A model generated the notes under the pieces. That model made no database searches and was not told where the DNA came from. It saw nothing but the letters and a program-made list of their open reading frames with translations. 55,357 bases of DNA, from assembly GCA_051275005.1 (NCBI GenBank), contig JBNMOP010000002.1:1-55357 (forward strand). Direction: 5' to 3'. The position numbers and the translations under genes are program-made. The stretch is from Gammaproteobacteria bacterium (GTDB lineage Bacteria > Pseudomonadota > Gammaproteobacteria > Eutrophobiales > Eutrophobiaceae). Shown here one piece after another: positions 2,156-44,437 of the stretch (position 1 is its first letter; each line of letters starts with the position of its first letter).

Positions 2156-2162
2156 GAGAGTA

Positions 2163-3569
2163 ATGATGAAGACTGCAAATCAATTTAGTGTGAGAGTCTT
2201 TACCTTATTGCTTGGTATTATTTTGCTAAGTACTACTGTCCAGGCCAGTCACAGGGCGCTTCTCTTTAATGAGGCGGCGTTCGACAAGGTCCTTGAGATG
2301 TGGCCGGATTATGTCCAATCTGTTAATAACCAGGCTCGAGGCATGGATAACCCGGGGCAGCGGGGACTCATTACCCAGAGTCCACTGCGTTCCCATTTGG
2401 GTCAATTGTTAAGAGAGCAACCCACCCCTGCCCAGTATGGCGATGGTTTTAAGAAACTGATTAATGAAGTCTATCTAACCGGTGGTATGACGACCTTTGG
2501 TTCCCGGGTCAATACCAATTCCCAGATCAGTGCCTATCATTATATGTTACGTAAAGATGGTCGTCTGCCCATACGACATGCCTATGCCTATGACTTGGCT
2601 AGGCAGGCTATTCCTACGGCTGCGGCCTCTGGTTTGAATGAATACAGCGGGGCAATGTGGGACACCATCGAGGCGAATCCCTGGCTCTGGTTGCATGGTA
2701 TGGCCAGTGAAGGCGATTGGGACGCACCCAATCGCGGTTGTCTACAGGATGATTTGGCAGTTAAACCAGGGGTTGATGAAAGGAAAATAAAAGAGATCAT
2801 AGAAATCTGTCCCGATTTTAATGCCGCCACTGTACAGTCATTGATGCGCGGCATACGTGCCGGCTGGCGCTTTGCTGGCGTGCACGGTGTAGGCAGTCAT
2901 GCCATTCGCTTGTTTGTCCAGAATCTGGAAGGACATATGAAGGCCAATCCCAAAGTTCTGACCCTGGATTATGTTCGCAAATCCCGCCACGGCTTTGCCC
3001 ATGGCACCATGACCGGTGCAGTGCCTGACGTAGTGGAGAGTATGCTCAAGTACAATCTGTACTTACCGATTAACTTGCGTCGTGCCCTGGCAGTCGAACC
3101 TGATAATTGCCGTGGAAATTATGTGGAGGCCTGTTTTAAATTCATAGGTCCTGTGAAGACCCTGCTGGATCAAGGTGTGAAGGTGGTGGGTGAATTTGAA
3201 ATCGGTAACCCAAACCCAGAGACCTACTATGACATTCTAGACGTCTATGTTAATCGCGAATTGGAAAAAGGTGCGGGGACAGAGGCTACTGCACCTGAAA
3301 GGTATGGTGACGGTGAGCTGTTTAATCCTGAAGAAGGTGTGGATCGCGTGGTAGCCCTAAAGTTGTTTACCTACCGCTCGGCAGAATTTCTCTATGCAGA
3401 GTCCAAAATTGGCAGTCTTGAAGTGGGTAAGCTTGCTGACTTCGTGGTCACTGACAAGCCCTATTTATCCGGACCCGACAGAGAAATCCGTGATAACAAG
3501 ACGATATTGACCGTGCTCGCGGGAGAGAGGCGTTACCAGGATCCGGACTATAAACCGGTGGTCCGCTAA
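2163..3569 (+). CDS. Exported C-terminal module of the same amidohydrolase family (no HxH strand), tandem paralog 1 of 4
   Basis: SD AGGAG overlaps the upstream stop, and the start is ATGATG at 2163/2166. The listed ORF start 2115 overlaps the preceding gene and is unlikely to be used. Sec signal ...TTVQA|SHR. It aligns with residues ~270-696 of the full-length paralog (SAYHYMLRKDGRLPIRHAY, GWRFAGVHGVGSHAIR, SRHGFAHGTMTG, EEGVDRVVALKLFTYRSAEF, GSLEVGKLADFVV). Confidence 0.8.
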   Translation: MMKTANQFSVRVFTLLLGIILLSTTVQASHRALLFNEAAFDKVLEMWPDYVQSVNNQARGMDNPGQRGLITQSPLRSHLGQLLREQPTPAQYGDGFKKLINEVYLTGGMTTFGSRVNTNSQISAYHYMLRKDGRLPIRHAYAYDLARQAIPTAAASGLNEYSGAMWDTIEANPWLWLHGMASEGDWDAPNRGCLQDDLAVKPGVDERKIKEIIEICPDFNAATVQSLMRGIRAGWRFAGVHGVGSHAIRLFVQNLEGHMKANPKVLTLDYVRKSRHGFAHGTMTGAVPDVVESMLKYNLYLPINLRRALAVEPDNCRGNYVEACFKFIGPVKTLLDQGVKVVGEFEIGNPNPETYYDILDVYVNRELEKGAGTEATAPERYGDGELFNPEEGVDRVVALKLFTYRSAEFLYAESKIGSLEVGKLADFVVTDKPYLSGPDREIRDNKTILTVLAGERRYQDPDYKPVVR

Positions 3570-3611
3570 GATTATCCGATTGATATAAAAATTTTGAAAC
3601 AGGTGATTAAG

Positions 3612-5015
3612 ATGGTGATAGTGAAACAACTTCGTGGACAATTATGTATGGCCTTACTAGGCGTGCTGGTATTAAGTGTGCCCGCCCAGGCTGCCCACCG
3701 CGTACTTCTTTTTAACGAAAATGCCATGGACAAGGTCCTGGAGATGTGGCCGGACTATGTTGAGTCCGTCAATAATCAGGCACGGGGAATGGAGAATGCC
3801 GGTGCACGCGGTGCGATAAACCAGGCCCCGCTCCGGGCACATCTGGGTCAATTGTTGCGAGAGCAACCGACACCGGCACAATTTGGTGATGGTTTTAAAA
3901 AGCTAATGAAAGACCACTTTCTTCCCGCAGGCCGAACGACTTTTGGTTCCCGCGTCAATACTAATGCCCAGGTCAGCGCTTACCATTACATGTTGCGTGA
4001 GGACGGTCGATTCCCGGTGAGGCATGCCTTTAGTCTAGACCTGGCACGCCAGGCCATTCCCGAGTCCGCGGCCGCCGGATTTTATGAGCACAGAGGGGCT
4101 ATGTGGAATACCATTGAAGCGAATCACTGGCTCTGGCTGCACGGCATGAGTGCCGAGGGAGATTGGGATGCCCCAAATCGCGCTTGTATGGGTGACGACC
4201 TTGCGGTCAAGGCAGGTGTGGAAGTACGACAGGTCAAAGAGATAATTGAGATTTGTCCTGATTTTAATGCACCAACAGTACAAGCCTTAATGAGGGGCGT
4301 ACGTGCCGGCTGGCGCTTTGCCGGGGTTCATGGCAACGGCAGTCATGCCATTCGTCTTTTTGTACAAAAACTGGAAGAACATATGATGGCCAACCCCAAG
4401 GTCATGACCTTGGATTTTGTTAGGGAAGCGCGACATGGCTTTGCCCACGGAACACTGGTGGGCGCGGTGCCGGAAGTGGTTGAGTCTATCCTAAAATATA
4501 ACCTCTACATACCCATCGATGCTGCGCGATCCATGACCATCGAGGCAGATGGTTGCCGTCAAAACTATGTTGAGGCTTGTATAGGTTTTATGGCCCCCAT
4601 AAAGACCTTGCTGGATCAAGGAGTCAAGGTAGTAGGAGAGGCAGAGGTGGTTGAGACCAACCCTGAGACCTACTTCAATCGGCTTGATGTTTATGTTAAC
4701 CGAGAGGTTACACATGTAGGTGGTCACGACTATGGTCCTCCAGATGATCCTAAGGATGGTAGTATTTATAGCCTCGATGAAGGTGTTGATCGGGTGGTTG
4801 CCCTGAAACTTTTTACCCACAGATCATCTGAATTTTTGTATGCAGAAACCAAGGTGGGTAGTCTGGAGGTGGGTAAGATGGCTGATTTCATCGTCAGTGA
4901 TAAGCCCTATCTATCAGGGCCGGATAGAGAAATTCGCGATAACAAGGTAGTTATGACGGTACTTGCCGGAAAGACAGAATACAAAGACCCGGACTATAAG
5001 CCGGTTACTCGTTAA
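3612..5015 (+). CDS. Exported C-terminal amidohydrolase module, tandem paralog 2 of 4
   Basis: ATG 3612 lies 5 nt after SD AGGTGA; the listed TTG 3594 is an alternative start. Sec signal ...VPAQA|AHR. By eye it is roughly 65-75% identical in protein to paralogs 1, 3 and 4 over the full length. Confidence 0.8.
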   Translation: MVIVKQLRGQLCMALLGVLVLSVPAQAAHRVLLFNENAMDKVLEMWPDYVESVNNQARGMENAGARGAINQAPLRAHLGQLLREQPTPAQFGDGFKKLMKDHFLPAGRTTFGSRVNTNAQVSAYHYMLREDGRFPVRHAFSLDLARQAIPESAAAGFYEHRGAMWNTIEANHWLWLHGMSAEGDWDAPNRACMGDDLAVKAGVEVRQVKEIIEICPDFNAPTVQALMRGVRAGWRFAGVHGNGSHAIRLFVQKLEEHMMANPKVMTLDFVREARHGFAHGTLVGAVPEVVESILKYNLYIPIDAARSMTIEADGCRQNYVEACIGFMAPIKTLLDQGVKVVGEAEVVETNPETYFNRLDVYVNREVTHVGGHDYGPPDDPKDGSIYSLDEGVDRVVALKLFTHRSSEFLYAETKVGSLEVGKMADFIVSDKPYLSGPDREIRDNKVVMTVLAGKTEYKDPDYKPVTR

Positions 5016-5128
5016 GTCACTCTGAATCTTCCTGTGGTTACGGTAACGAGCTAGCCTGGGTGCTATAACACAGGCCAGTTGGCTGGATGAGTAATAAGAT
5101 TCCCAGAGAATTAAATAGGAGAATAGTG

Positions 5129-6532
5129 ATGAGGGAACTAAGGCAGTTACATCTGATTATCTGGCTTACGTTTGTTTCGCTATGTTCGGTAAGTGTAACC
5201 GTCAACGCCGCCCACAGGGCCCTCCTATTTAATCAAAATGCCATGGACAGAGTCCTGGAAATGTGGCCTGATTTCGTCGAAGCCACCAACAACCAGGGCA
5301 GAGGTCTGGATACGCCTGGCGAGAGGGCGCTTATATTAACCAGCCCATTACGAGAACATTTCGGTCAACTACTGCGGGAGCAGCCAACCCCCGCGCAGTT
5401 CGGTGATGGCTTCAAGATACTGGTCCGAGACCATTATGCCCCCTCCGGTATTTCAACCTTTGCCACCCGGCTCAATACCGCTGATCAGATCAGTGCCTTT
5501 CATTATATGTTGCGTCAGGATGGTCGCCTGCCGGTACGACTTGGTTATAGTAATGACCTTGCGCGACAGGCCATTTCTTCTATCGCTGCAGCCGGACTGT
5601 ATGAATACAGTGGGGTAATGTGGGACACCATCGAGGCAAACCCCTGGTTATGGTTGCATGGTATGAGCAGTGAGGGGGAATGGGATGCACCCAACCGTGG
5701 TTGCATGGGGGACGACCTGCCTGCAAAGGCCGGGGTAGACGCACGCAAGGTCAAGGAGGTTATTGAAATCTGCCCTTCTTTTGGTGAGCCAGCCGTAGAG
5801 TCCTTGATGCGTGGAGTTCGATCCGGTTGGCGTTTTGCCGGTGTGCATGCCATAGGCAGTCATGCCATCCGTATATTTGTACAAAAGTTGGAAGAGCATA
5901 TGAAGGCAAATCCAAGGATTCTTACTCTGGATTATGTGCGCAAATCACGGCACGGGTTTGCCCACGGCACCTTGACTGGTGCAGTGCCTGATGTGGTTGA
6001 GAGTATGTTGAAATATAATCTTTTTTTGCCAATTAATGTCCGCCGATCATTGGCCATCGAACCTCAGAATATTCAACAGAATTATGGTGAAGCAGGTTGG
6101 AAATTTTTGGCACCAATCAAGACACTAATCGATGCAGGCGCGAATGTAGTCGGAGAAGGCTTGATAGGTGAAGCTACGCCTGAGACCTATTTTGATATTT
6201 TTGATGTTCATGTAAACCGAGAGATTTCCCCTGGCGAAGATGAAAACAGGATGCCCACAGAAAAATATGGCGATGGCATTGTTTATGTCCCTGAAGAAGG
6301 TGTGGATCGAGTAGTTGCTCTTAAACTGTTTACTTACCGTTCTGCAGAATTTTTATTTGCAGAATCAAAAGTAGGGAGTCTGGAGGTAGGTAAATATGCT
6401 GATTTTATTGTGACGGATAAACCTTACCTGTCAGGTTCGGATACGCAAATCCGTGACAACAAGGTGGTCATGACAGTAACTGCCGGTGAAAATACATACC
6501 AGGATTCAGAATATAAACCTGTTGTACGTTAA
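5129..6532 (+). CDS. Exported C-terminal amidohydrolase module, tandem paralog 3 of 4
   Basis: ATG 5129 lies 6 nt after SD AGGAGA; ATG 5087 is an alternative start. Sec signal ...VTVNA|AHR. It carries the same conserved blocks as paralogs 1, 2 and 4. Confidence 0.8.
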   Translation: MRELRQLHLIIWLTFVSLCSVSVTVNAAHRALLFNQNAMDRVLEMWPDFVEATNNQGRGLDTPGERALILTSPLREHFGQLLREQPTPAQFGDGFKILVRDHYAPSGISTFATRLNTADQISAFHYMLRQDGRLPVRLGYSNDLARQAISSIAAAGLYEYSGVMWDTIEANPWLWLHGMSSEGEWDAPNRGCMGDDLPAKAGVDARKVKEVIEICPSFGEPAVESLMRGVRSGWRFAGVHAIGSHAIRIFVQKLEEHMKANPRILTLDYVRKSRHGFAHGTLTGAVPDVVESMLKYNLFLPINVRRSLAIEPQNIQQNYGEAGWKFLAPIKTLIDAGANVVGEGLIGEATPETYFDIFDVHVNREISPGEDENRMPTEKYGDGIVYVPEEGVDRVVALKLFTYRSAEFLFAESKVGSLEVGKYADFIVTDKPYLSGSDTQIRDNKVVMTVTAGENTYQDSEYKPVVR

Positions 6533-6725
6533 TGTGTCGATCTACTATCAGGTAGTTGGGAGTAAACCCTTACACTTTGACTGTTAGCCCTATAGACATT
6601 TATTGCTCTGCTAAATTTTTACATACCGAATCCAGGGCGAGTAGATAAAGCCGGACATTATTTTTATGACACGCAGTTAGAATGTAGATCAAATACATAT
6701 CGAAACTTAATATAGGGACAACGCA

Positions 6726-8084
6726 ATGAAAATATTCAATCGATTCCTCTCACATTTTTGCATAATCTTGATGGCCATGTTTTTGCTAAACGCATCGGTT
6801 CAGGCCGCCCACCGGGCGATGCTGTTTAACCAGAATGCCATGGACAAGGTACTTGAAATGTGGCCGGACCTGGTTGAATCGGTGAATAATCAGGCGCGAG
6901 GAATGGAGAAAGCGGGTGAACGAGGGATCATCACTCAGTCCCCACTGCGAGCCCACCTTGATCAGCTATTGCGCGAGCAACCAACACCGGCACAATTTGG
7001 TGACGGTTTCAAGATGTTGGTGAAAGAGGAATACGCCCCGAAAGGTATGACGACATTTGGATCTCGGCTCAATACCAGTGACCAGATCAGCGCATATCAC
7101 TATATGCTGCGTGAAGAGGGACGTTTGCCCCTTCGTTTTGCCTATAGTTTGGATTTAGCTCGCCAGGCCATACCGGAAGCCGCTGCCAACGGATTTTATG
7201 AGCACCGAGGGGCCATGTGGGACACCATTGAATCTAATCCCTGGCTATGGCTGCATGGCATGAGCGCTGAAGGAGATTGGGATGCCCCTAATAGAGGTTG
7301 CATGGGTGATGACTTGCCGGTCAAACGAGGGGTAGATGCAAAGCAAGTAAAAGAGGTGCTGGAGATATGTCCGGATTTTAATGCCCCTACTGTGAATGCA
7401 TTGATGCGCGGGGTACGTAGTGGCTGGCGTTTTGCGGGGGTACATTCCATAGGTAGTCACGCAATTCGGTTGTTTGTACAGAAACTTGAAGAACACATGA
7501 GGGCAAACCCAAAGGTACTCACCATGGAATTTGTTCGGGAATCCAGACACGGTTTTGCCCACGGTACTATGACCGGTGCCGTCAAAGATGTGGTTGAGGC
7601 AGCGGTTAAATATAATCTTTTTATCCCCATTGCACTGGGAAGATCGCTGGAGATTGAACCGGACAATTGCCGCCAGAATTATGTCGAAGTCTGTATTAAC
7701 TTCCTTGGCCCCATTAAGACCCTATTGGACGCCGGGGTTAATGTCGTCGGTGAAAGTCATGAACCTACTTATTTTGGTGATATGGATATATTCGTAAACA
7801 GGACCCTCCTGCGTGGCGTACATAAAGGGGAGACATTCGTTCCAGAAGAGAGTGTTGACCGTATAGTGGCCCTCAAACTCTTTACCTTTCGCTCTGCGGA
7901 ATTTCTGTACGCGGAGTCCGGTGTCGGTAGTCTGGAAGTGGGTAAGTATGCTGACTTTATCGTTACTGATAAACCCTTCTTGTCAGGACCTGACCGGGAA
8001 ATACATGATAACAAGGTTGTCCTGAATGTATTAGCGGGTAAAACCATCTACCAGGATCCGGAATACAATCCGGTCAGCCCTTAG
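6726..8084 (+). CDS. Exported C-terminal amidohydrolase module, tandem paralog 4 of 4 (shortest; shorter variable loop)
   Basis: Sec signal ...NASVQA|AHR. It carries the same blocks (GWRFAGVHSIGSHAIR, SRHGFAHGTMTG, ESVDRIVALKLFTFRSAEF, GSLEVGKYADFIV). It is separated from paralog 3 by a 193-nt spacer. Confidence 0.8.
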   Translation: MKIFNRFLSHFCIILMAMFLLNASVQAAHRAMLFNQNAMDKVLEMWPDLVESVNNQARGMEKAGERGIITQSPLRAHLDQLLREQPTPAQFGDGFKMLVKEEYAPKGMTTFGSRLNTSDQISAYHYMLREEGRLPLRFAYSLDLARQAIPEAAANGFYEHRGAMWDTIESNPWLWLHGMSAEGDWDAPNRGCMGDDLPVKRGVDAKQVKEVLEICPDFNAPTVNALMRGVRSGWRFAGVHSIGSHAIRLFVQKLEEHMRANPKVLTMEFVRESRHGFAHGTMTGAVKDVVEAAVKYNLFIPIALGRSLEIEPDNCRQNYVEVCINFLGPIKTLLDAGVNVVGESHEPTYFGDMDIFVNRTLLRGVHKGETFVPEESVDRIVALKLFTFRSAEFLYAESGVGSLEVGKYADFIVTDKPFLSGPDREIHDNKVVLNVLAGKTIYQDPEYNPVSP

Positions 8085-8228
8085 TAGTTCCTACATATAA
8101 TTTGGGTATAGCATACTAAATGTTAAAGTGTGTTACGCCGTGATGTTTTCAGCTTCACCACATTAAGTTGCAATCTAAACATCACTAACAAATAGATTAT
8201 GCCCCTGCATACGAATTATTAAGTCGCG

Positions 8229-8819
8229 ATGTATAAATTTAATCCATATAAAATAATTATTTATCTGATTTTATTTCAGCATATTTCTTTTATTGGTTAT
8301 ATACAGGCACAATCAGATTTAGATCCTGTGGTTATTAATTTTGGATCAACTCAAATTACACATCGACAGTTTGATAAACAGTTTGAAACAGCTATGGTTT
8401 TTAATGCATTGGAGAATGGAGTGCCTATTAAAAACCAGGATCAGATCTATGTCCTGGAGCATCGATATCTGCAACAGCGTGCGAAAGAGATGGTGTTACT
8501 GGAGATTGCAAGGCAACAGGGAATTACCGTCTCCATTATGGAACTGGATGGATATATGGATGATTTTATGCAAAAACTGGGATTTAGCGGGTATAGCGTA
8601 AAAAACATGCATAAACTAGGTTTTCAGGAAGAACTATCCTTCCGGGCGATCATGCGAGAAAAGAAAACCATACTCCTAATGATATCCCACATTAAAAATG
8701 ACTTGGAACATAATGATAACGCGAAAACAATAGAGGATAAATTTCTGGAACTAATTAAGCAGAGTGGAATTCAGATATTTCCTGAAAACATTGATATTCC
8801 ATTGACCGATTTAAATTAA
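8229..8819 (+). CDS. Small exported protein, possibly a SurA-N-terminal-like chaperone domain
   Basis: Signal peptide ...GYIQA|QSD. The pattern 'INFGSTQITHRQFDKQFE ... LQQRAKEMVLLEIARQQGITVS--ELD-YMDDF' resembles SurA/PpiD N-terminal domains. The region is AT-rich and the assignment is weak. Confidence 0.4.
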   Translation: MYKFNPYKIIIYLILFQHISFIGYIQAQSDLDPVVINFGSTQITHRQFDKQFETAMVFNALENGVPIKNQDQIYVLEHRYLQQRAKEMVLLEIARQQGITVSIMELDGYMDDFMQKLGFSGYSVKNMHKLGFQEELSFRAIMREKKTILLMISHIKNDLEHNDNAKTIEDKFLELIKQSGIQIFPENIDIPLTDLN

Positions 8820-8949
8820 TCTTACTCACAAGATTGGTGATTATCCTGTATGATTTTATAATTGAATCGTGAAATAAAAGTGTAAGTAGTAGACTCATAA
8901 ATGCGAGAGGAATATCCTCAGTAATATATAATTCTGGTAGGGAGGTTGG

Positions 8950-9246
8950 ATGAAACATAGCAGCTGCGGTTTTCTTATTAAAATCTTTTTTCTTGTAACG
9001 ACATTAATTCTGCCGACAATCACTTGGGGACAAGGTTTGCCTGAAGGTGAACACAGGGACAAGGTAATTATGGTGTGTTCAGCCTGCCATGGTATCGACA
9101 ATATATTTAATGCCTCCCAAAAGATGTCAGCAGATGACTGGGAATTTTATGTCTATGAGATGGTTGCCCGGGGGGCACCGGTAGGCAAGGATGATATGAA
9201 AGATATCATTGAGTACCTGGCTGAAAATTTTACAACTAAAAAATAA
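8950..9246 (+). CDS. Mono-haem c-type cytochrome (exported)
   Basis: SD GGGAGG upstream. A signal peptide is present. A single CxxCH motif (CSACHG). The size, 98 aa, fits a small soluble cytochrome c. Confidence 0.75.
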   Translation: MKHSSCGFLIKIFFLVTTLILPTITWGQGLPEGEHRDKVIMVCSACHGIDNIFNASQKMSADDWEFYVYEMVARGAPVGKDDMKDIIEYLAENFTTKK

Positions 9247-9316
9247 CATGCAATCACAAGATTGCTACGATCAGATTACTATTATTAATAATAGCAAGAT
9301 ATTCAGGGGAATTTAA

Positions 9317-11215
9317 ATGAGAGATTTAGTCAACGACCTTGTTAATGCAAAAATATCCAGACGAAGTTTTTTGGCAGGCATGGCGGCCGCCAGTTACAGC
9401 GTAACTGCGGCAAGATCAGCCCTGGCTGCGGTAGAGCCGTTTATCCCTGGATCAGAATTACCCGGAAATTATGTGCGCACAGTTGAAGGCACCGGCGCAG
9501 AACTCATGGTTGAACAAATTAAAGAGACAGGCACAAAATACCTGTTTTGTTCCAATGGGTCTGGTATGGGCCCGATAGCCGATGCCCTGGTGAAACACCC
9601 TGAGATTCAACTCATTCAGGCAACCCAGGAAGGACAGGTGGTGTCCATAGCTGATGGCTATGCCAAGGTTACAAAAAAACCGGCCTTTGGGATGTATAGC
9701 CGGGTAGGCTTGCCCCATTCAACTTCAAATATGTATAACTCCATGAAGGACCGTACCCCATTGGTCATCATGAGCGATCATTCAAATTCACCTCGTGAAG
9801 GAACAGACAGCCACGAGGATATCGATAACTGGATCGAGGCCATTCGCTTTTATACCAAGTGGCGCTGGGAGGCCCATAAACCAGATCGACTTGCAGAATG
9901 GGTACGTCGTGCTTACAAGGTGGCGAGTGTATTACCATGCGGGCCTACTGCATTACGGATCCCCCGTGACTATATGTATACCAAGACCACAAGTCCGATC
10001 TTTTCTGGTGAGGCATTAAATGTCCCTATGGAAATTCGCCCTGATACCTCAGAGGTAGAACGGGCCGCCAAGATTATATTGAGTGCAAAGTCACCATTGA
10101 TGAAGGTTGGTCCAGAGGTCAGTCAATGTGATGCCCGTGCTTCAGTAGTAGAACTATGCGAACTGGTGGGTATACCGGTGATCCAACATCGAAGTTTTTA
10201 TTGTGATTTTCCAAATACCCATGACCTTTGGTTGGGAGAAAATCAAACTGTCCCTGCCTATGTGCGTGCATACAATCAACCCATCGATCTTTATCTAAAT
10301 TTTGGTGCAAGGCAGGATCCAGGTGGATATGGCAGGCGCGGAACAGCAGTAAGGGAGATCCACGCAAGCGTCGATCAAAATACGATTGGAAGAAACTCAC
10401 CAACCGTGAGTAATCTGGTTGGCAATTTAGATGCAGTGGCAAAGGATTTAATCGATGCCATTAAAGGTATGGCCAGTGCTTCACAATTGAAGCAACTCTC
10501 AGCAGAAAGACGCCGAGTCGCTGGAGGCTTGACACAATCCTTCATAGAAGCACGCCTCGAGGCCGGCAGATTAAGTAAAGGCTCACCTGTACCCTGGCAA
10601 CGATTGGTATATGAGTTACGTCAACAAATGGAGCCCGATGCTGTCATTGTTGAAGAGCAAGGTACTGAATACAAATCCATCGGTAATTTCCCTTTTGCAG
10701 ACGATGCCATGATGAAGATTGGTAGAACAGAGGGACGGGCACTAGGTTGGGGTGTGGGTGCATCGGCTGGCGTAAAACTTGCCTTACCTAATAAACAGGT
10801 AGTTTCCTTACTGGGCGATGGCGGATTCCTTTTCGGTCAAACAGATTCACTGTGGACCATGTCACGTTATGACATCCCGGTCATGTCGGTGGTTTATAAT
10901 AATGGTACATACGAAGAGACCCGTTGGAACATCATGGGCCAAATGGGGGCTGCAGGTAAGGCAAATCGTGACTATGTATCCTATCTGGGTAACCCACGGG
11001 TAGATTTTACCAAGTTGGCCGCTGCATATAATATCCCGGGAGCGGTGGTAAAAAATTCGGACCAATTAAAAGGGGCTATACGAAAAGGTCTACGTACCCT
11101 TGCTGAGGGTCGGCCATTTATGCTGGATGTGCATACACGTACCCTGGGCCTCGGTTCAGAATTGACCGAGTACCAGAAATATTCTCTGGCGGAACAGCGC
11201 ACCAGGAAAGTTTGA
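9317..11215 (+). CDS. Tat-exported thiamine-diphosphate-dependent enzyme (acetolactate synthase / benzoylformate decarboxylase superfamily)
   Basis: Twin-arginine leader SRRSFLAGMAAA...SALA (RR codons 9359-9364). Pyr-domain Glu context ATQEGQVVSIADGYAK. ThDP-binding motif GDG-X25-NN at 10814-10903. The ~630-aa three-domain size fits the family. Confidence 0.85.
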   Translation: MRDLVNDLVNAKISRRSFLAGMAAASYSVTAARSALAAVEPFIPGSELPGNYVRTVEGTGAELMVEQIKETGTKYLFCSNGSGMGPIADALVKHPEIQLIQATQEGQVVSIADGYAKVTKKPAFGMYSRVGLPHSTSNMYNSMKDRTPLVIMSDHSNSPREGTDSHEDIDNWIEAIRFYTKWRWEAHKPDRLAEWVRRAYKVASVLPCGPTALRIPRDYMYTKTTSPIFSGEALNVPMEIRPDTSEVERAAKIILSAKSPLMKVGPEVSQCDARASVVELCELVGIPVIQHRSFYCDFPNTHDLWLGENQTVPAYVRAYNQPIDLYLNFGARQDPGGYGRRGTAVREIHASVDQNTIGRNSPTVSNLVGNLDAVAKDLIDAIKGMASASQLKQLSAERRRVAGGLTQSFIEARLEAGRLSKGSPVPWQRLVYELRQQMEPDAVIVEEQGTEYKSIGNFPFADDAMMKIGRTEGRALGWGVGASAGVKLALPNKQVVSLLGDGGFLFGQTDSLWTMSRYDIPVMSVVYNNGTYEETRWNIMGQMGAAGKANRDYVSYLGNPRVDFTKLAAAYNIPGAVVKNSDQLKGAIRKGLRTLAEGRPFMLDVHTRTLGLGSELTEYQKYSLAEQRTRKV

Positions 11216-11308
11216 TACGTTACAAAATCGAGACGATAATTATTTTTTAGATTATCAATACTGGGTATTTAATTTAATCTTAATATAGTACGAGTGGGGG
11301 AGTAAAAA

Positions 11309-13225
11309 ATGGCAAACCGACGAAATTTTTTGAAAGGTGTAGGTGTTGCTGCGGCATCATCTGTCGCTGCGGGTAAAGTCACAGCACAAACTTCACCAGC
11401 CGCCAATACAGTTTCAGCACTCCCTCCCAGTGCCCATGCAGAAGCCATGGAGCTGTCTATACCCGAGGGCTATAACGAAGACGAGACCAAACATCATTTT
11501 GTCCAGAGCGCCGGATCGGACTTCATGGTGGATGTTATCAAGTCTTTGGATATTGATTATATTTCCTCTAACCCAGGATCCAGCTTTCGCGGATTGCAGG
11601 AATCCATTTCTGTTTACGGTGGAAATAAAAAACCTGAATTTCTGACTTGCCTGCATGAAGAATCCGCTGCCGCTATGGCACATGGCTATGCCAAGATAGC
11701 CCAGAAACCTATGGGTATGGCATGTCATGGAACCGTTGGTCTGCAGCATGCATCCATGGCGATATACAATGCATACTGTGATAAAGCACCCATGGTCATC
11801 TTTGCCGGAAATCACATGGAGGCTACGGGTCGTCGGCCCGGTGCCGAGTGGCACCATTCTGCTCTGGACTGTGTCAAGCTGGTACGGGATTTTATCAAGT
11901 GGGATGATACTCCACTATCACTGACCCATTTTGCCGAATCCACTGTGCGTGCTTACAAGTTAGCGGTAACCCCACCCATGGGGCCAGTGGTAATTCAACT
12001 CGATGGTCATCTGATGGAAGAGGATACCCACGGTGTTGTGCCCGCTATACCAAAATTCACCTATCCACAACCACCCCATGGTGACACGGGTGCATTAAAA
12101 GAGGCGGCCAAGTTACTCATTAACGCAGATAACCCGGTTATTCTTGCTGGCAGTACCGCAAGGACACCTGCAGGGATGGCGTCACTGATTGAGTTGGCTG
12201 AATTGTTGCAGGTACCGGTTTCGGGTGGTGGACGAATGAATTTCCCCAACACTCACTATCTGAATCAAGGGGGTAGAGGACTGATACGTCAGGCAGATGT
12301 GATCCTGGGCCTGGAGCAAAATGGGCTTTGGGATACTGTAAACAGCATGCGCGACCTGGTGCATCGAAGCTCGGTAAGAGTGGCCAAAGATGATGTTAAG
12401 CTCATTAGCCTGGGTTCCAATGATCTGTTTATGAAATCTAATTACCAGACCTTCCAACGCTTTCAACCCGTGGATCTGGATATTACCGGTGATGCCGAGG
12501 CGTCATTACCTTACCTTATTGAAGAAGTAAAAAAACAAATGCCGCGTTCTATGCGTTCTAAATTACAGGAGCGAGAAAAACGATTTCGCAAATCATATGA
12601 ACAAATCATAGAAGGCGTACGACAAGCCGCTGCCCTGGGTTGGAATCAAAGACCTGTCAGCATTGATCGAGTGAGCATGGAACTATGGGATGTGATGAAG
12701 GAACGTGACTGGTCTTATGTTGGCAGGGTCCCTCCTGCTGCCAGGTTATGGGACATGGATAAGCACTATCATCATATTGGTGGCTCAGGTGGTGCGGGTG
12801 TAGGCTACAACCTCCCTGCCTCAATCGGTGCGGCATTGGCAAACAAGGAGCATGGAAGATTTTCAGTTTCTATACAACCCGATGGCGATTCACTCTACGC
12901 CCCAGGGGCATTATGGACTGCCGCCCATCACAAGATACCCATACTTATGGTGATGCATAATAATCGTTCCTATCACCGCGAGGTCATGCATTTACAACGT
13001 ATGGCCACGCGTAGACAGCGTGGTGCCGATGGTGCTGGCGCTAAGATTGGTAACGTGTTCGAAGACCCACATATAAACTTTGCCACACTGGCGCAATCAT
13101 TTGGTGTTTACTCTGAAGGCCCTATCACTAATCCTGATGATCTTGGGCCGGCAATAAAAAGGGCAAGTGAAATAGTCGATCAGGGTATGCCTGCATTAGT
13201 CGACGTCGTTTGTCAGCCTTCTTAA
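11309..13225 (+). CDS. Tat-exported thiamine-diphosphate-dependent enzyme, divergent paralog of the preceding gene
   Basis: Leader NRRNFLKGVGVAAA...VTAQ. Pyr-domain CLHEESAAAMAHGYAK. ThDP motif variant GDS-X22-NN at 12884-12964. SD GGGGGAG upstream. Confidence 0.85.
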   Translation: MANRRNFLKGVGVAAASSVAAGKVTAQTSPAANTVSALPPSAHAEAMELSIPEGYNEDETKHHFVQSAGSDFMVDVIKSLDIDYISSNPGSSFRGLQESISVYGGNKKPEFLTCLHEESAAAMAHGYAKIAQKPMGMACHGTVGLQHASMAIYNAYCDKAPMVIFAGNHMEATGRRPGAEWHHSALDCVKLVRDFIKWDDTPLSLTHFAESTVRAYKLAVTPPMGPVVIQLDGHLMEEDTHGVVPAIPKFTYPQPPHGDTGALKEAAKLLINADNPVILAGSTARTPAGMASLIELAELLQVPVSGGGRMNFPNTHYLNQGGRGLIRQADVILGLEQNGLWDTVNSMRDLVHRSSVRVAKDDVKLISLGSNDLFMKSNYQTFQRFQPVDLDITGDAEASLPYLIEEVKKQMPRSMRSKLQEREKRFRKSYEQIIEGVRQAAALGWNQRPVSIDRVSMELWDVMKERDWSYVGRVPPAARLWDMDKHYHHIGGSGGAGVGYNLPASIGAALANKEHGRFSVSIQPDGDSLYAPGALWTAAHHKIPILMVMHNNRSYHREVMHLQRMATRRQRGADGAGAKIGNVFEDPHINFATLAQSFGVYSEGPITNPDDLGPAIKRASEIVDQGMPALVDVVCQPS

Positions 13226-13236
13226 GGAGTATGTTA

Positions 13237-13632
13237 ATGATAAATAATTTTAAGGTTGGATCTTGCTTCTCAATAGGATTATTGTTTTGCCTGGTAAGTT
13301 TTTCAAACATGGTTTCAGCACAGGGTGCAACGTTGGATTATTATGGTGAGATCAATGAATCAGAACATCCCCCTGGTTATCAGGATTATGTAGAAATGGG
13401 TTGTTTCCAATGCCACGGCTTCCAGGGCCAGGGTGCCAACAGTCCAAAACTGGTGGCGCCAGTAATCCCTTATGATGGCTTCGCCAACCAGGTCAGGCGT
13501 CCCAGGAATACCATGCCGGCCTATTCGCCCAATGTTTTGAGTGAAGCGAAGTTACGGTCTATCTATTCTTATTTACAAAATATTCCACCGTCACCAGACC
13601 CCTCCGAGATTCCACTTTTATCCGGAGATTAA
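13237..13632 (+). CDS. Mono-haem c-type cytochrome (exported)
   Basis: SD AAGGAG (13224-13229) overlaps the upstream stop, and ATG 13237 lies 7 nt downstream; the listed start 13210 overlaps the ThDP gene. Signal peptide ...NMVSA|QG. A single CxxCH (CFQCHG). A downstream Met (NTMPAY) is a candidate axial ligand. Confidence 0.75.
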   Translation: MINNFKVGSCFSIGLLFCLVSFSNMVSAQGATLDYYGEINESEHPPGYQDYVEMGCFQCHGFQGQGANSPKLVAPVIPYDGFANQVRRPRNTMPAYSPNVLSEAKLRSIYSYLQNIPPSPDPSEIPLLSGD

Positions 13633-13920
13633 TAGATATAGTTACAGATATTTTTATCTGGTAGATATGTCTCTCTTTATTGGGGAAGTATCCTGATTAT
13701 CCTGGGGGAGAGGCGACCTTTATTATTCCTCCGGTGCATTTATCTTTATTAAGCCAAAGCAGCTTTAATAAAAATTGTTGTATAAATATCACACTACTAT
13801 TTCCATTAAATATTAGCGTATAAATATATTACTGTTGGATTGGTATTACTCCGTATCATTTTGTATACTGTAAGATTAGAGGTGTAACCAATTCATAAAT
13901 TTAAAAGACGGGGGAGCTCC

Positions 13921-16698
13921 ATGTCTAGATATATTCATCCCAATGTAGTGCTATGTGCAATCATTTCAACACTCATGCTCAGTCCCATGCTGTTATCGGC
14001 ACAGGTTCTGGAAGAAATTGTTGTTACCGCCCAGCGTCGTGTTCAGAGCCTGCAAGAAGTACCTATCTCCATTGAGAGTTTCGCCGGTGCTGAGCTACAG
14101 CAACAGGGATATCGTAATCTCGATGACCTGGCCAATTTTTCTGCAACCGTGCTGGTAAATGACGAAGGCTTTCTTTCAACGGAAAGGACCGTACGCGGAT
14201 TTGGCACCTCGGGTAATGCCCTTACAGTAGAGCAGGCAGTGCCAATCTTTGTAGATGGTATCCATCATGGACGCGCAGGCCAGGTGAAAAATGCCTTTCT
14301 GGACGTAGAACGTCTAGAGGTGTTGAAAGGTCCGCAGCCAGTGTTCTTCGGTATGAGTGCCACTGCGGGTGCATTTAACATTCAAAGTCGCCGTCCCACA
14401 GATACCTGGGAAGGGTATATCGATACGGAATTCGGTAATCGGAAAAAAGGGACGTTGGAAGCCGCGATTGGTGGACCAATATCAGATACCTGGGGCATCC
14501 GCTTTGCTGGGAAATATTCGACCTCGGAAGGTTTTATGAAGTCCGTCATTGATGGTAGACCTGTCGGGGATTATGAAGACCTGGGTGGCAGGGTGATTCT
14601 TGAATGGAAACCCACCGATAACTTTCAAGCTGCATTAAAGCTTGAAGCCACAGCTATCGATAAGTTCCCAGAAGCCAGACATGTCTGTCTGACGGCAGGC
14701 AGTATGATCTTCGGTCGTCAAGATCCTACCCGCGCCGGCGACACTGGTAACGATCGATCGATACATGCGCCGCCACCCAAGGGAGAAGGATTCAACCAAA
14801 ACGTCAGTACTGACAGCAACTGTTTCGGCAGCAATAAGGGTATAAGTGCAGGCGGACCATGGTTTGCAGCGCCGTTTCGTCTTCATGAAGAAAATACAGA
14901 CACCGGTAGCATAGATGTTCGAAATACTCTCGATGCCTGGAACAAACAATTATGGGAACAAACTGACGGCAAGGCAGGCAGTCCCTACGGGATCCAGGGT
15001 ATCGAAGAGATTGGTAACCAAGAAGGATATTTGGATCTGGGGTATACCATGGACAATGGTATTCAGGTCAATTCACTCTCTGGATACAGTTATTTCAAGA
15101 GGCTGAATGTGCGCGACAACAGTGATTCACCATTTTATCATAACCAGCAAGACCGTGTGGAGATTTTTGATCAGATCAGTTCTGAATTACGATTTACCTC
15201 ACCGAGCGGGGGTACAATTGAATGGATGGGTGGTTTCTTCTGGCAGAAGACCGGTTATAACATCACCGCCAACCATGCGACTGCAGTTGTTCGTCGAGGT
15301 CTGCGATACAATGATCACATACGGGAAGATCAGGAATGGAAGTCAGCATTTGCCTCTGTGACCTTTAACTTCCTGGACGACCGCGCTTCCATAGATTTGG
15401 GTGGTCGTTATGTCGATCTGAATAAGAGTGGTGCTGTGTCTGGTGTGGCCGGGCAGTTTTTATTTGATTCAATGCCTTGCGCAGGTGATAGAGCTCTGGA
15501 TCATTTAGGCCTGGGTAATGCCGATCCTGCGACTTGTACACCAGATCCAAACGGACTTCAGATTGCCGCAGCCGATGCAGCTATCGTGCTGCCGGGTGCC
15601 GATACCTCAAATCTCTGGATGCTGGATTATAATTCCAACACGGGACGCATAGTACCAACCAACTGGCGCAGCCCAACAACGTCAGCAGTGGGGATCTTTA
15701 TCTATCCGAACCGGGCAGTGAATACCCTTAACGGCCCGAGAAGAGGTCGCGGACTTCGACGAGCCCCCTTCGTTGATGGCCGAGTGGAAGACGGAGTAGA
15801 ATGCTGTGATTTTGGATCAAAGGAGTTCGACCCTCAGGTTACCCTGCGATATAGGTTCAATGACGAACACTCGGTATTTGCCCGTTGGGCCCAGGCCTTT
15901 AAGGCAGGTGGCTTTGACACCGGCGTCACCACCATCAACTCAAGTGTTGATGATTTTCGTTTTGATGCGGAAAATGCCCAGACCTTTGAGTTTGGTTCCA
16001 AGGGTAATCTCTTTGATGGTAGTGCCCGGTATGACCTCACGTTCTTCAGAACAGATTTTAATGACTTCCAGATCACGGTTCCCACAGGCATCGAAGGTGA
16101 TCCCTTCCTCAACGCCAATGCTGGTAAGCAGCGGGTGCAGGGCATAGAGTTCGGTTACACACATGCCTTGTCAGACCGTTTGACCATGGGACTGGCGGGC
16201 GCCTGGATGGACGGGGTGATGAAGATCTTCCCGGCAGGTGGATGTACCGACGAGGAAACAAGAACGGCACCGGCATCGGGTTGTGTCCTGAATACTCCAG
16301 GAGACCCAGATAGTGGCGGTAGCATTGACCGTTCCGGTGAGGAATCACCGAAGACGCCTGATTACAAGTTGGTCCTCAGTCTGGATTACTGGATGCCTAT
16401 TGGTAGTTTAAAGGGCATGTGGAATTTCAAAGGATACGTCTCTGATGGTTACTTAACCGATGTGAACGGTTTCAGTAAGGAAGTTAAGTTTAACAAGCAT
16501 GAAGATATTAACACTTCTCTGAGTATCGGTGACATGGAAGATAAATGGACGATTTCACTCTGGGGTCGTAACTTGTTAGAGGCCAGACCATCTTACAATG
16601 CGGAATTCGATACTCTACCTGATGGCTTTCTGGGTGCTTCCGTGTCTCCCAATAACTACATGTCTTATGGTGTGAAGTTCCGTTATAATTACCAGTAA
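13921..16698 (+). CDS. TonB-dependent outer-membrane receptor (large type, 925 aa)
   Basis: A signal peptide is present. The plug signature is LEEIVVTAQRRVQSLQEVPISI...VRGFGTSGN...VERLEVLKGPQ. A long beta-barrel region follows. It is a paralog of 41418..44204. Confidence 0.9.
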   Translation: MSRYIHPNVVLCAIISTLMLSPMLLSAQVLEEIVVTAQRRVQSLQEVPISIESFAGAELQQQGYRNLDDLANFSATVLVNDEGFLSTERTVRGFGTSGNALTVEQAVPIFVDGIHHGRAGQVKNAFLDVERLEVLKGPQPVFFGMSATAGAFNIQSRRPTDTWEGYIDTEFGNRKKGTLEAAIGGPISDTWGIRFAGKYSTSEGFMKSVIDGRPVGDYEDLGGRVILEWKPTDNFQAALKLEATAIDKFPEARHVCLTAGSMIFGRQDPTRAGDTGNDRSIHAPPPKGEGFNQNVSTDSNCFGSNKGISAGGPWFAAPFRLHEENTDTGSIDVRNTLDAWNKQLWEQTDGKAGSPYGIQGIEEIGNQEGYLDLGYTMDNGIQVNSLSGYSYFKRLNVRDNSDSPFYHNQQDRVEIFDQISSELRFTSPSGGTIEWMGGFFWQKTGYNITANHATAVVRRGLRYNDHIREDQEWKSAFASVTFNFLDDRASIDLGGRYVDLNKSGAVSGVAGQFLFDSMPCAGDRALDHLGLGNADPATCTPDPNGLQIAAADAAIVLPGADTSNLWMLDYNSNTGRIVPTNWRSPTTSAVGIFIYPNRAVNTLNGPRRGRGLRRAPFVDGRVEDGVECCDFGSKEFDPQVTLRYRFNDEHSVFARWAQAFKAGGFDTGVTTINSSVDDFRFDAENAQTFEFGSKGNLFDGSARYDLTFFRTDFNDFQITVPTGIEGDPFLNANAGKQRVQGIEFGYTHALSDRLTMGLAGAWMDGVMKIFPAGGCTDEETRTAPASGCVLNTPGDPDSGGSIDRSGEESPKTPDYKLVLSLDYWMPIGSLKGMWNFKGYVSDGYLTDVNGFSKEVKFNKHEDINTSLSIGDMEDKWTISLWGRNLLEARPSYNAEFDTLPDGFLGASVSPNNYMSYGVKFRYNYQ

Positions 16699-17003: not shown

Positions 17004-18479
17004 ATGAGATCAGACAGGAGTGAACATATAAATATTTTATCAATACGCATCGCATCAATATTTATTGTACTTGTTGCCATACTTACAGTTCATTTGAATG
17101 TTCAATCCCAGCAATCTAATCCAACGGATGAGCTGGTGATACAAGGCGGGATACTTTTAGACATGGTGGGTGATGAGGCCAGTCCTGTTCCGTTAAAGGG
17201 TTTGGTTATCAGGGATGGTGTGATAACCCAAATTATTGCAGCGAATGCCAGTGAAGACCTGCCCAATGCAGCAAAGACAATTGATGCCTCTGGTAAATAT
17301 ATCTTGCCGGGTCTAATCGATGCCCATATCCACTTCAGGCCATGGACACCCAACGCATCGATTTGGCGTAGGGGTAATCTGCATTACGGCGTAACAACTA
17401 TCGTCGACACTGGTCCCTGTGGGGTCACCTGCAAGGTGGAAGAACCCAATGACTGGATAGTGCAATACAAGGATTTCATGAACAACTCCCCGCAATCGGA
17501 TGGGCCGACACTGTATATGACTGGCAGAAAACTCGATGGGCCCGACGGGAGATTTCAACCCCATTCTGTTCCATTAAAAAGCCTAGATGAAATCCCACAG
17601 TACCTGGATCACCTGGTTAGCCTGGGCGTGGACGCCATTAAGGCTGAGAAACAATTACCGCCAGACTTCCGCGGCAAGATAGTAGAAGAGGCGGATAAAC
17701 GAGGTCTGATGGTGGTAGGTCATTCCAGGGACGCACTGGAATCCATTGGTGTTGGCATGCGTTTCATTGAACACATGTGGCCCATCACCTCTTCACTGCT
17801 TATGAGTGATCCCGGCGTCTCCCTGGACTCACCAGGTCATGATTACCTTATGGACCTGGGCAGGGCGCAGCCACTCATCGATCTGATGGTAGAAAAAGAG
17901 GTGTATATCAATCCCACCATGATGGGACGATATGGAGATCTCACTGAACGCGCCGCTAGTTTTGAGGCAGAAGACACCGTATTGTTATCCTATGGGCAGG
18001 TCTACAGCGATACGCCAGCAGAAATACATCAGAGGATCTTTCGTGGACACCGTTTACCTGAGGACATTAGCGATACCGAAAAAGGTCAATGGCAAAGCGG
18101 ATTCGTTAAGATACAGGCATTCATCAAGCGCTTGAGTGAGGCGGGCGGCCTGGTCATTGCCGCAACTGATAACACAGAAGGACGTTTGCCCGGTGTAACT
18201 ATGCACCGTGAAATGTTGTTGCTCGCCGATGCCGGCATTGCGCCTTACAAGGTACTTCTGGGGGCTACACGATGGCCGGCGGAAATGATGCATAAAGAAA
18301 ATCTTATCGGCACGGTTGAAACCGGTAAACAAGCAGATATCATCTTATTGAGCTCCAATCCCTTGGAGGATATCAGTAATAGCGAGAGTGTGGATTATGT
18401 GATCAGGAAAGGGAAAATTGTCAAAAGCCCTGATTATTGTTCTGTTATTATTCCACCCATATCACATACCTGTAACTAA
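17004..18479 (+). CDS. Exported metal-dependent amidohydrolase (imidazolonepropionase-related, COG1228-like)
   Basis: Hydrophobic signal/anchor segment. HxH strand LPGLIDAHIHF. Later His and Asp contexts VVGHSRD, IEHMWP and VIAATDN. C-terminal ETGKQADIILL is typical of the family. Confidence 0.8.
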   Translation: MRSDRSEHINILSIRIASIFIVLVAILTVHLNVQSQQSNPTDELVIQGGILLDMVGDEASPVPLKGLVIRDGVITQIIAANASEDLPNAAKTIDASGKYILPGLIDAHIHFRPWTPNASIWRRGNLHYGVTTIVDTGPCGVTCKVEEPNDWIVQYKDFMNNSPQSDGPTLYMTGRKLDGPDGRFQPHSVPLKSLDEIPQYLDHLVSLGVDAIKAEKQLPPDFRGKIVEEADKRGLMVVGHSRDALESIGVGMRFIEHMWPITSSLLMSDPGVSLDSPGHDYLMDLGRAQPLIDLMVEKEVYINPTMMGRYGDLTERAASFEAEDTVLLSYGQVYSDTPAEIHQRIFRGHRLPEDISDTEKGQWQSGFVKIQAFIKRLSEAGGLVIAATDNTEGRLPGVTMHREMLLLADAGIAPYKVLLGATRWPAEMMHKENLIGTVETGKQADIILLSSNPLEDISNSESVDYVIRKGKIVKSPDYCSVIIPPISHTCN

Positions 18480-20447: not shown

Positions 20448-20488
20448 TTTTGGGATTGCATCATCAAAAATATCCTCGGGGGCGGTGG

Positions 20489-22921: not shown

Positions 22922-23005
22922 TTTGGCATTGTTTGTAGTTATACATTGAATTTTAAAGATAAATGTTCAAGAATTAATAGATACGTAATTGGAGGTTAGA
23001 GCGCC

Positions 23006-24355: not shown

Positions 24356-24382
24356 TTAACAGCTATTCAATAATTAATAGAT

Positions 24383-31038: not shown

Positions 31039-31077
31039 TTTCTCCTCATTTATACCTGTGTAATAACAATCAATAAA

Positions 31078-34880: not shown

Positions 34881-34892
34881 ATTGATAAACAC

Positions 34893-37996: not shown

Positions 37997-37998
37997 CC

Positions 37999-39336: not shown

Positions 39337-39374
39337 TTGGTTTAAACTTCTGGTTAAAGTTTACTGGAGAGCAT

Positions 39375-44253: not shown

Positions 44254-44437
44254 GTCTGATTTTTCCCTACGAGTAAGAATTTAAGGCACCCGAATACCTT
44301 TTTTAAAATATTGGGAGAAAGGACAAATGATGTAAATGAAGTGTTCGATGTTTTATTCACATCGGGAATATGCCAAAATCATCTTAATTGAACGTTTGTT
44401 GGTAACGAATATCGTTACATTATCTGGGGGAATAAAT

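Follow-up and report, generated by a model that had tools for sequence, protein, structure and literature searches.

Introduction

Enzymes dependent on thiamine diphosphate (ThDP) are classically cytoplasmic, and the oxidative ones pass their electrons to FAD, lipoamide or iron-sulfur clusters; we know of no natural system in which ThDP hands electrons to a haem c. A locus that may depart from both patterns is found in contig JBNMOP010000002.1 of a gammaproteobacterium of the family Eutrophobiaceae (assembly GCA_051275005.1), of which a stretch of 55,357 nucleotides, hereafter the window, was analysed. It carries two genes for three-domain ThDP enzymes with twin-arginine leaders, ThDP-A and ThDP-B (A and B), each next to the gene of a small mono-haem cytochrome c, designated c1 and c2, respectively. 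With moderate confidence, we favour the reading that these enzyme-cytochrome modules are ThDP-dependent oxidoreductases of the 2-oxoacid (or aldehyde):cytochrome c type that lack a flavin and are exported via twin-arginine translocation (Tat).

Among the described systems, benzoylformate decarboxylase (BFD; MdlC of Pseudomonas putida, PDB 1BFD) shares with both enzymes the three-domain ThDP fold, Glu47 and a middle-domain loop of the FAD-free type, at an identity of only about 22-25%. Nevertheless, BFD is cytoplasmic, leaderless, non-oxidative and without a cytochrome partner, whereas A and B have leaders and neighboring cytochrome genes; furthermore, A possesses an extra basic C-terminal tail and B an N-terminal extension of ~40 residues past the leader, which is conserved in its family. 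The overall design is reminiscent of the SorAB sulfite:cytochrome c oxidoreductase of Starkeya novella (PDB 2BLF), in which a Tat-exported catalytic subunit is encoded next to a Sec-exported mono-haem cytochrome c, the small haem subunit SorB, and feeds the periplasmic cytochrome pool. The catalytic subunit of SorAB is, however, a molybdopterin enzyme, while here a ThDP enzyme would take its place in a predicted pairing; by analogy, the SorAB-type design fits both modules. Within the ThDP superfamily, PoxB (pyruvate:quinone oxidoreductase) and the lactobacillal pyruvate oxidase (POX) decarboxylate a 2-oxoacid oxidatively, giving a carboxylic acid (or an acyl phosphate), and deliver electrons to the respiratory chain. 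They need FAD, however, reside in the cytoplasm or peripherally on the membrane's inner side, and have quinone or O2 as acceptor, in contrast to the FAD-free-like enzymes of the window and their cytochrome c partners. A precedent for the flavinless, stepwise one-electron oxidation of a ThDP intermediate is provided by PFOR, OFOR and oxalate oxidoreductase (OOR), although their domain architecture is unrelated; they are cytoplasmic, often oxygen-sensitive enzymes with [4Fe-4S] clusters and acceptors of low potential. Finally, a periplasmic FAD/Zn enzyme of the D-2-hydroxyglutarate dehydrogenase family oxidises an organic acid and passes the electrons to cytochrome c, a process termed "extracytoplasmic respiration", but unlike A and B it is not a ThDP enzyme.

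Results

Linkage of enzyme and cytochrome genes

An earlier reading of the window, made from the sequence only (the sequence-only reading), had described two enzymes, two cytochromes and a possible chaperone between 8229 and 13632, and all five open reading frames (ORFs) were confirmed on the forward strand at the stated coordinates: a SurA_N-like protein, c1, ThDP-A (9317..11215, 632 amino acids), ThDP-B (11309..13225, 638 amino acids) and c2. The two mono-haem cytochromes that it described as flanking the enzymes are indeed present, c1 at 8950..9246 (98 amino acids) and c2 at 13237..13632 (131 amino acids), and both are predicted to be exported by Sec, with a Sec-type leader and a single CxxCH motif each (CSACH at nt 9076-9090 in c1, CFQCH at nt 13402-13416 in c2). 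The sole library match of c1 is the NCBIfam SorB model NF052246 (E=7.9e-9), at 35.5 bits and below the 93-bit cutoff of that model, and its best and only meaningful PDB sequence match is likewise SorB (2blf_B, E=0.005). The second cytochrome, c2, scores 35.4 bits against Pfam Cytochrome_CBB3, above the cutoff of 27, and resembles a class-I domain of QcrC. Both display class I features, a conserved ...Y(E/D)M... in c1 and ...MPAY... in c2, and the Met of each motif is probably the axial haem ligand. In five loci (L029, L031, L045, L071 and L085) the c2 homologue downstream of B is longer, ~204-223 against ~120 amino acids, with stronger E-values, and may be a di-haem or extended form.

The start of c2 proposed in the sequence-only reading, the ATG at 13237, is the best choice. 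The stop codon of B (TAA, 13223-13225) is followed by GGAG at 13226-13229 and by this in-frame ATG, which lies 12 nt past the stop and 7 nt after the GGAG, and the public gene call has the same start and the same 131 amino acids. A TTG at 13210, taken as the start in a mechanical ORF list, was set aside on account of the GGAG spacing and the public call. Scans of 8000-14000 for promoters and terminators returned sites no more numerous than in shuffled sequence.

In order to define the distribution of B, one genome per GTDB species was scanned, and homologues were found in >581 species-level genomes of Acidobacteriota and of Gamma-, Alpha- and Betaproteobacteria, nearly all of them uncultured metagenome-assembled genomes (MAGs). 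A phmmer search with the c2 of the window in 80 loci fetched from these genomes detected a homologue adjacent to B in 72. Of these, 65 have it downstream of B on the same strand and 5 downstream on the opposite one, while in the other 2 it is upstream; as four of the eight negative loci hold <500 nt of downstream DNA, the rate among evaluable loci is 72/76 (95%). The context of A was followed in 80 loci from a metagenome scan, where c1 is located directly upstream of A in every locus of 53-85% identity with enough upstream DNA, and a c1-like gene is found upstream or downstream at ~36-46% identity. At still greater distance lies a Tat-leadered A-like clade (32-37% identity). Some of its members carry a third, unrelated small mono-haem cytochrome c with the pattern C..CHG..KEG...MPDF (L136:4000-4278, L137:5626-5976, L138:5672-5947 and L156:6660-7448), and five loci of the clade without a cytochrome (L142, L144, L154, L158 and L166) sit beside an MDR-type oxidoreductase and a major facilitator superfamily (MFS) transporter.

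The enzyme and cytochrome genes meet at tight or overlapping junctions. In an all-against-all clustering of the genes within 4 kb, the cytochrome was the sole conserved neighbor of either family, the next cluster reaching 8/80 loci; no further conserved partner, whether a dehydrogenase, an additional redox protein or a chaperone, emerged from this clustering. Apparent long fusion-like ORFs in GC-rich loci were discarded as out-of-frame artefacts of the longest-ORF rule. Enzyme and cytochrome distances are correlated in both pairs (Mantel r=0.853 for B and c2, n=72; r=0.805 for A and c1, n=31), and 0/999 permutations were as high in either case. Such a correlation shows that enzyme and cytochrome are inherited as a unit, without on its own proving physical contact. 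Taken together, the co-occurrence in the evaluable B loci and in all the 53-85% A loci with enough upstream DNA bears out the functional link to cytochrome c that had been proposed from the window.

Two ThDP enzymes outside the named families

In A as well as in B, all three Pfam domains of the ThDP enzymes, TPP_enzyme_N, _M and _C, pass the gathering cutoff by a wide margin, and together with AlphaFold2 (AF2) models and Foldseek they support the three-domain architecture previously assigned to the two proteins. The AF2 model of A has a predicted local distance difference test (pLDDT) score of 90.2 and that of B one of 83.9, with disorder confined to residues 1-40 of the latter. BFD is the best PDB sequence match of the two enzymes and the top Foldseek match of the A model (TM ~0.82 on target, 22% identity), followed by cyclohexane-1,2-dione hydrolase (CDH), HKA synthase and benzaldehyde lyase (BAL).

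The glutamate of the Pyr domain and the GD(G/S)...NN motif, noted in the sequence-only reading, proved to be aligned and conserved, and the motif coordinates arithmetically correct: the ThDP/Mg-binding motif of A (G500-D501-G502...N528-N529, 10814..10903) aligns to the GDG...NN of BFD, and that of B (G526-D527-S528...N551-N552) lies at 12884..12964. The cofactor-activating glutamate is E105 in A and E117 in B, invariant or nearly so in the family alignments. Also invariant in A are D501, G502, N528, N529 and H302, the last of these together with P299 in the A3 alignment, where F298 is nearly invariant; in B, G526, D527, N551 and N552 are invariant, and H116-E117-E118, H140 and H316 invariant or nearly so. 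Based on residue-level HMMER alignments to solved BFDs, Glu47 of BFD corresponds to these two glutamates, Ser26 to S82 of A and S91 of B, and His281 to H302 and H316, respectively, while His70 corresponds to H140 of B and falls in a variable column of A, occupied by Y127. Accordingly, B keeps the complete catalytic trio Ser26/His70/His281 and A the equivalents of Ser26 and His281.

No NCBIfam model reaches its curated cutoff for either protein. The best, PRK08327 "thiamine pyrophosphate-requiring protein" (NF006203, cutoff 456), gives 204.8 bits for A and 228.7 for B; the BFD equivalog NF005485 (cutoff 493 bits) gives 194.8 and 143.3, respectively; the pyruvate oxidase model PRK08611 gives 78 bits for B against a cutoff of 742 and is not among the matches listed for A. 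The homologues are labelled by NCBI just as "thiamine pyrophosphate-binding protein". Judged from their sequences, A and B are real ThDP enzymes outside any named family.

Both enzymes are likely to be flavin-free, for FAD-free BFDs are their nearest matches in sequence and fold, and A has a middle-domain loop, VGPEV, like the LGPDV of BFD. The FAD-binding acetolactate synthase (ALS), POX and CDH have a Gly-rich loop at this position, unlike VGPEV. An enzyme of the FAD type (PoxB, ALS or CDH) was considered and disfavoured, its matches being weaker than those to FAD-free BFD and the loop being BFD-like, which falls short of proof. Haem or iron-sulfur sites within the enzymes themselves were rejected as well, as no CxxCH, Cys-cluster or other iron-sulfur motif was seen on reading the translated sequences of A and B, and a Pfam scan of the window proteins detected no PFOR domains.

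Leaders and predicted export

Each enzyme begins with a twin-arginine leader, SRRSFLAG in A and NRRNFLKG in B. The predicted Tat signal peptide of A (residues 1-37, 9317..9427) comprises a conserved n-region, MRDLVNDLVNAKI, the motif S14-R15-R16-S17-F18-L19, an h-region, and A35-L36-A37 followed by A at the predicted cleavage site; that of B (residues 1-26, 11309..11386) comprises N3-R4-R5-N6-F7-L8-K9, an h-region, and V24-T25-A26 followed by Q at the predicted site. In both leaders AF2 confidence is low, and TAT_signal is the top Pfam match. The B leader scores 21.7 bits against TIGR01409 TAT_signal_seq, above the cutoff of 16.7, and falls narrowly under that of PF10518 TAT_signal (21.9 against 22.7 bits).

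The leaders are retained across both families. Among the best 120 of 312 A matches at E<=1e-20 (58-97% identity), 116 carry SRRxF[LIV], the exceptions being three truncated gene calls and one single substitution, and R15, R16 and F18 are invariant across 44 leader-bearing A-type sequences, at identities down to 26%. Likewise, RRxF is present in 114 of the 120 B homologues listed, at identities down to 54%, the exceptions being five truncated calls and one over-extended call with the RR outside the search window, and R4 and R5 are invariant in the B family alignment. When 1.84 billion representatives were searched exhaustively with A as query, two groups became apparent: full-length proteins of ~630-650 amino acids, aligned from residue 1 and keeping the RR to ~27% identity, and proteins of ~555 amino acids without a leader, aligned only from residue ~57 and beginning precisely at the end of the leader and linker. 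A comparison of alignment occupancy between exported and cytoplasmic relatives identified two segments specific to the exported clade, residues 1-54 and the basic C-terminal tail of A (residues 621-632, ...YSLAEQRTRKV, 11177..11212), the latter being occupied in >80% of the exported sequences against <30% of the cytoplasmic relatives. The claim that both proteins carry Tat leaders was thereby upheld: the motif is kept by nearly all homologues examined, the B leader passes TIGR01409, and the cytoplasmic relatives lack the extension. These data lend strong support to the predicted export of B and good support to that of A.

Two further features of A were observed. Its n-region, MRELVK.L....ISRR (residues 1-16, 9317-9364), is conserved to ~27% identity, which is unusual for a Tat signal, and might bind a dedicated proofreading chaperone. 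The tail, ...YS[LV]A..R.RKV, is a candidate for an active-site lid or a cytochrome-docking element, the docking role being speculation.

Two independent modules

In the sequence-only reading, A and B were paralogs of a single bracketed system and possibly subunits of a heteromer. This part of the reading was not sustained. A and B are 26% identical, so that "paralogs" overstates their kinship, and in a rough neighbor-joining (NJ) tree leaderless proteins fall between the A and B clades, A being ~30% identical to the leaderless relatives and ~25% to B in that comparison. The genomic contexts are equally separable. In the loci L001-L003, from a relative with an A of 76% identity, the gene immediately upstream of A is a clear c1 homologue (CTACH...EEWEVYVYDMVARGA), and the pair is surrounded by panBCD, mscL and tgt, with neither B nor c2 present; in another locus (L005, B 56% identical), B overlaps its own cytochrome gene by 4 nt; and no A homologue was found within 6 kb of B in the 80 GTDB B loci (L008-L087), B and c2 occurring without A in about 78/80 genomes. 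Even where both modules share an island, as in L006, L007 and L089, a gene for a 930-residue TonB-dependent receptor stands between them, in the series amidohydrolases, SurA-like gene, c1, A, receptor, B, c2, and in the window A and B are separated by an AT-rich spacer of 93 nt. Based on the 26% identity and the separable contexts, the window therefore holds two independent enzyme-cytochrome modules that happen to be neighbors here. Because leaderless proteins separate the A and B clades and the cytochrome families differ, two lineages have converged on the same enzyme-cytochrome pairing with different cytochromes. An A/B hetero-oligomer or five-gene operon was rejected on the grounds of the low identity, the separate occurrence and the inserted receptor gene. 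In a Rhodospirillaceae MAG (L036:3563-8312), two B and c2 modules were found in tandem.

A possible SurA-like chaperone gene had also been placed upstream of the cytochrome. The ORF is present (8229..8819, forward strand, 196 amino acids); it encodes a putative periplasmic chaperone with a Sec leader and without the peptidyl-prolyl isomerase domain, and matches Pfam SurA_N_3 at E=8.6e-6 and 26.1 bits, just under the cutoff of 27.2. It is, however, merely an occasional companion of the A module, with homologues upstream of c1 in only six loci (L006, L007, L089, L090, L094 and L099). In three of these the protein is longer, ~322 amino acids, with an apparent parvulin-like C-terminal part as judged by eye (L090:4718-5695, L094:11-979 and L099:1092-2063).

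Genomic surroundings

The window as a whole is a periplasmic island of oxidative catabolism, with several TonB-dependent receptors (13921-16698 and 41418-44204), at least seven secreted Amidohydro_3 paralogs (within 1397-8084, 17004-18479 and 49094-51184), two pyrroloquinoline quinone (PQQ)-dependent dehydrogenases (18552-20336 and 44336-46216) and a dienelactone hydrolase on the reverse strand (26278-27150). Three of the Amidohydro_3 genes, in tandem at 3594-5015, 5087-6532 and 6726-8084, share the N-terminus AAHR.LLFN.NAMD.VLEMWPD, and two overlapping ORFs, 1397-2155 and 2115-3569, are apparently one amidohydrolase gene split by a frameshift or decayed to a pseudogene. In L006 and L090, too, these paralogs are located ahead of the A module, and PQQ dehydrogenases are found near B modules in L004 and L006. 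A gene trio is present in three copies, at 20450-26029 (forward), 29368-34892 (reverse) and 35540-41045 (forward), the second and third being divergent. It encodes a PSD/PSCyt protein of ~820 amino acids (DUF1587/1595/1592/1588/1585, plus a weak cytochrome c domain at the N-terminus), a DUF1552 "HXXSHH" protein of ~445 and an ankyrin-repeat protein of ~550 amino acids; in L006 a PSD protein likewise follows the PQQ dehydrogenase.

Elsewhere, the neighbors of the modules include UbiD-type decarboxylases, a Mo-hydroxylase, a PcaD/PcaC-like fusion, Rieske oxygenases, MFS transporters and cupins, each of these apart from the Rieske oxygenases being counted in just 4-8 loci. Genes of the UbiD family (prFMN-type) occur near A modules in five loci and near B modules in six (for instance L111:3814-5376 on the forward and L014:1908-3533 on the reverse strand), and their recurrence is a weak hint of aromatic-acid metabolism.

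Discussion

Based on the synteny, which points to oxidative chemistry, and on the resemblance to BFD, we hypothesize that in each module the ThDP enzyme would fold and bind ThDP-Mg2+ in the cytoplasm and then be exported, already loaded, by the Tat pathway, while its dedicated mono-haem cytochrome, c1 for A and c2 for B, would be exported by Sec and matured in the periplasm. There, the enzyme would decarboxylate a 2-oxoacid or add to an aldehyde, yielding the C2-alpha-carbanion/enamine of ThDP, which would escape protonation and aldehyde release and be oxidised by the bound cytochrome c in two one-electron steps, with no flavin or iron-sulfur cluster in the electron path. The resulting acyl-ThDP would be hydrolysed to the carboxylic acid, and the electrons would pass through the periplasmic cytochrome pool to a terminal oxidase, so that an organic acid would be respired outside the cytoplasm. 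In assays of transketolase, pyruvate decarboxylase (PDC) and E1, one-electron acceptors such as ferricyanide take electrons from ThDP enamines, as does 2,6-dichlorophenolindophenol (DCPIP), and PFOR oxidises hydroxyethyl-ThDP (HE-ThDP) stepwise, one electron at a time; because of these precedents, a direct oxidation of the enamine by haem is plausible. As for the substrate, the neighborhood genes, taken with the BFD-like active site in B, weakly suggest aromatic or other carboxylic 2-oxoacids.

The leaders, the catalytic residues and the co-occurrence with cytochromes, on which the sequence-only reading had staked its proposal, all withstood examination, the leaders being kept, the residues aligned and conserved, and the cytochromes found alongside the enzymes in other genomes. 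Several observations nonetheless weigh against a cytochrome c oxidoreductase. The absence of FAD is argued from resemblance and from a loop motif known from these families. His281, whose equivalent is retained in A and B, protonates the enamine in the non-oxidative BFD, and its retention would suit a plain decarboxylase equally well. The Mantel correlations could reflect co-inheritance alone, neither the 240 homologues listed nor the 160 loci showed an enzyme-cytochrome fusion, and the distant Tat-leadered A-like clade is mostly without an adjacent cytochrome. The A leader scores under both curated Tat hidden Markov model (HMM) cutoffs (PF10518, 18.0 against 22.7 bits; TIGR01409, 11.1 against 16.7). 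Lastly, searches of the open-access full-text literature turned up no account of a Tat-exported or periplasmic ThDP enzyme or of one partnered with cytochrome c, a scope that leaves room for a description in a subscription journal.

The main rival is an exported, non-oxidative periplasmic decarboxylase, lyase or carboligase of the BFD, BAL or CDH type, whose cytochrome neighbor serves another purpose, either accepting electrons from a separate aldehyde dehydrogenase or acting as a structural or regulatory subunit. We regard it as unlikely. In its favour, non-oxidative BFDs are the closest relatives, the fold matches include CDH and BAL, and the proton-relay residues of BFD are kept in A and B; moreover, PQQ dehydrogenases that use cytochrome c lie in the same island, as they do in L004 and L006, and some distant Tat-leadered relatives have no linked cytochrome. 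A cytochrome serving a separate dehydrogenase is nevertheless difficult to reconcile with the cytochrome being the sole conserved neighbor, with no dehydrogenase gene travelling along with the pair, or with the c1-A pair standing alone among housekeeping genes in L001-L003. Adjacency in 95% of the loci, across phyla and with co-divergence, and the arrival of two unrelated lineages at the same pairing argue against it as well. The tight linkage would suit any obligatory redox partnership, including one in which the cytochrome gives or takes single electrons to redox-activate or repair its ThDP enzyme, or to sustain a radical-type, non-redox-neutral C-C reaction, with no bulk flow of substrate electrons to the respiratory chain, and the predicted lack of a flavin to buffer two- to one-electron chemistry is in keeping with such a role. 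This we consider improbable, given that no precedent is known in the BFD/ALS-type ThDP superfamily, that high-potential class-I cytochromes c are typical acceptors of periplasmic dehydrogenases, and that the sequences bear no sign of radical chemistry.

The remaining alternatives concern location and assembly. That A and B are cytoplasmic, their RR extensions being no export signals and the cytochrome genes unrelated to them, would agree with the habitual location of ThDP enzymes, with the scores of the A leader under the Tat HMM cutoffs and with its unusually conserved n-region. It is very improbable, however, in view of the B leader that passes TIGR01409, the RR and F residues that are invariant over deep divergence, the n/h/c layout and AxA-like sites of both leaders, with low AF2 confidence there, the adjacency in 72/76 loci with its Mantel statistics, and the nature of the partners, c-type cytochromes, which exist only outside the cytoplasm. 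Even less credible is a hetero-oligomer of A and B served by both cytochromes as a single four- or five-gene system. The two genes are adjacent and on the same strand in the window, and share an island in L006, L007 and L089, but the divergence of A from B, the A and c1 pairs found without B, the 80 B loci with no A within 6 kb, and the receptor gene or AT-rich spacer between A and B speak against it, as does the general knowledge that the active sites of this superfamily form across homodimer interfaces.

Returning to the oxidoreductase reading, a survey of alpha-proteobacterial Tat substrates does not include ThDP enzymes in its list. We tentatively advance, as a possibility held with less assurance than the function of the two modules themselves, that they represent a new class of ThDP enzymes, exported to the periplasm by Tat and free of flavin and Fe-S clusters, that act as 2-oxoacid (or aldehyde):cytochrome c oxidoreductases in which a dedicated haem c oxidises the enamine directly. 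Such a class may have evolved independently at least twice, with a SorB-like and with a class-I CBB3-type cytochrome, and may be widespread among uncultured Acidobacteriota of soils and Proteobacteria of sediments and the sea, which would thereby respire organic acids without importing them.

If this is true, ThDP biochemistry would gain both a new compartment and a new electron acceptor, and ThDP would join the cofactors carried across the membrane by the Tat pathway. The modules are only two genes long, which makes the hypothesis directly testable, and could become a new enzyme class if direct transfer from ThDP to haem were shown; BFD-like scaffolds with built-in electron export are also of possible interest for biocatalysis. 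With the B type alone present in >580 species-level genomes, the modules would give abundant uncultured bacteria of soil and sediment a hitherto unrecognised way of feeding the electrons of organic acids or aldehydes into respiration without taking these compounds up.

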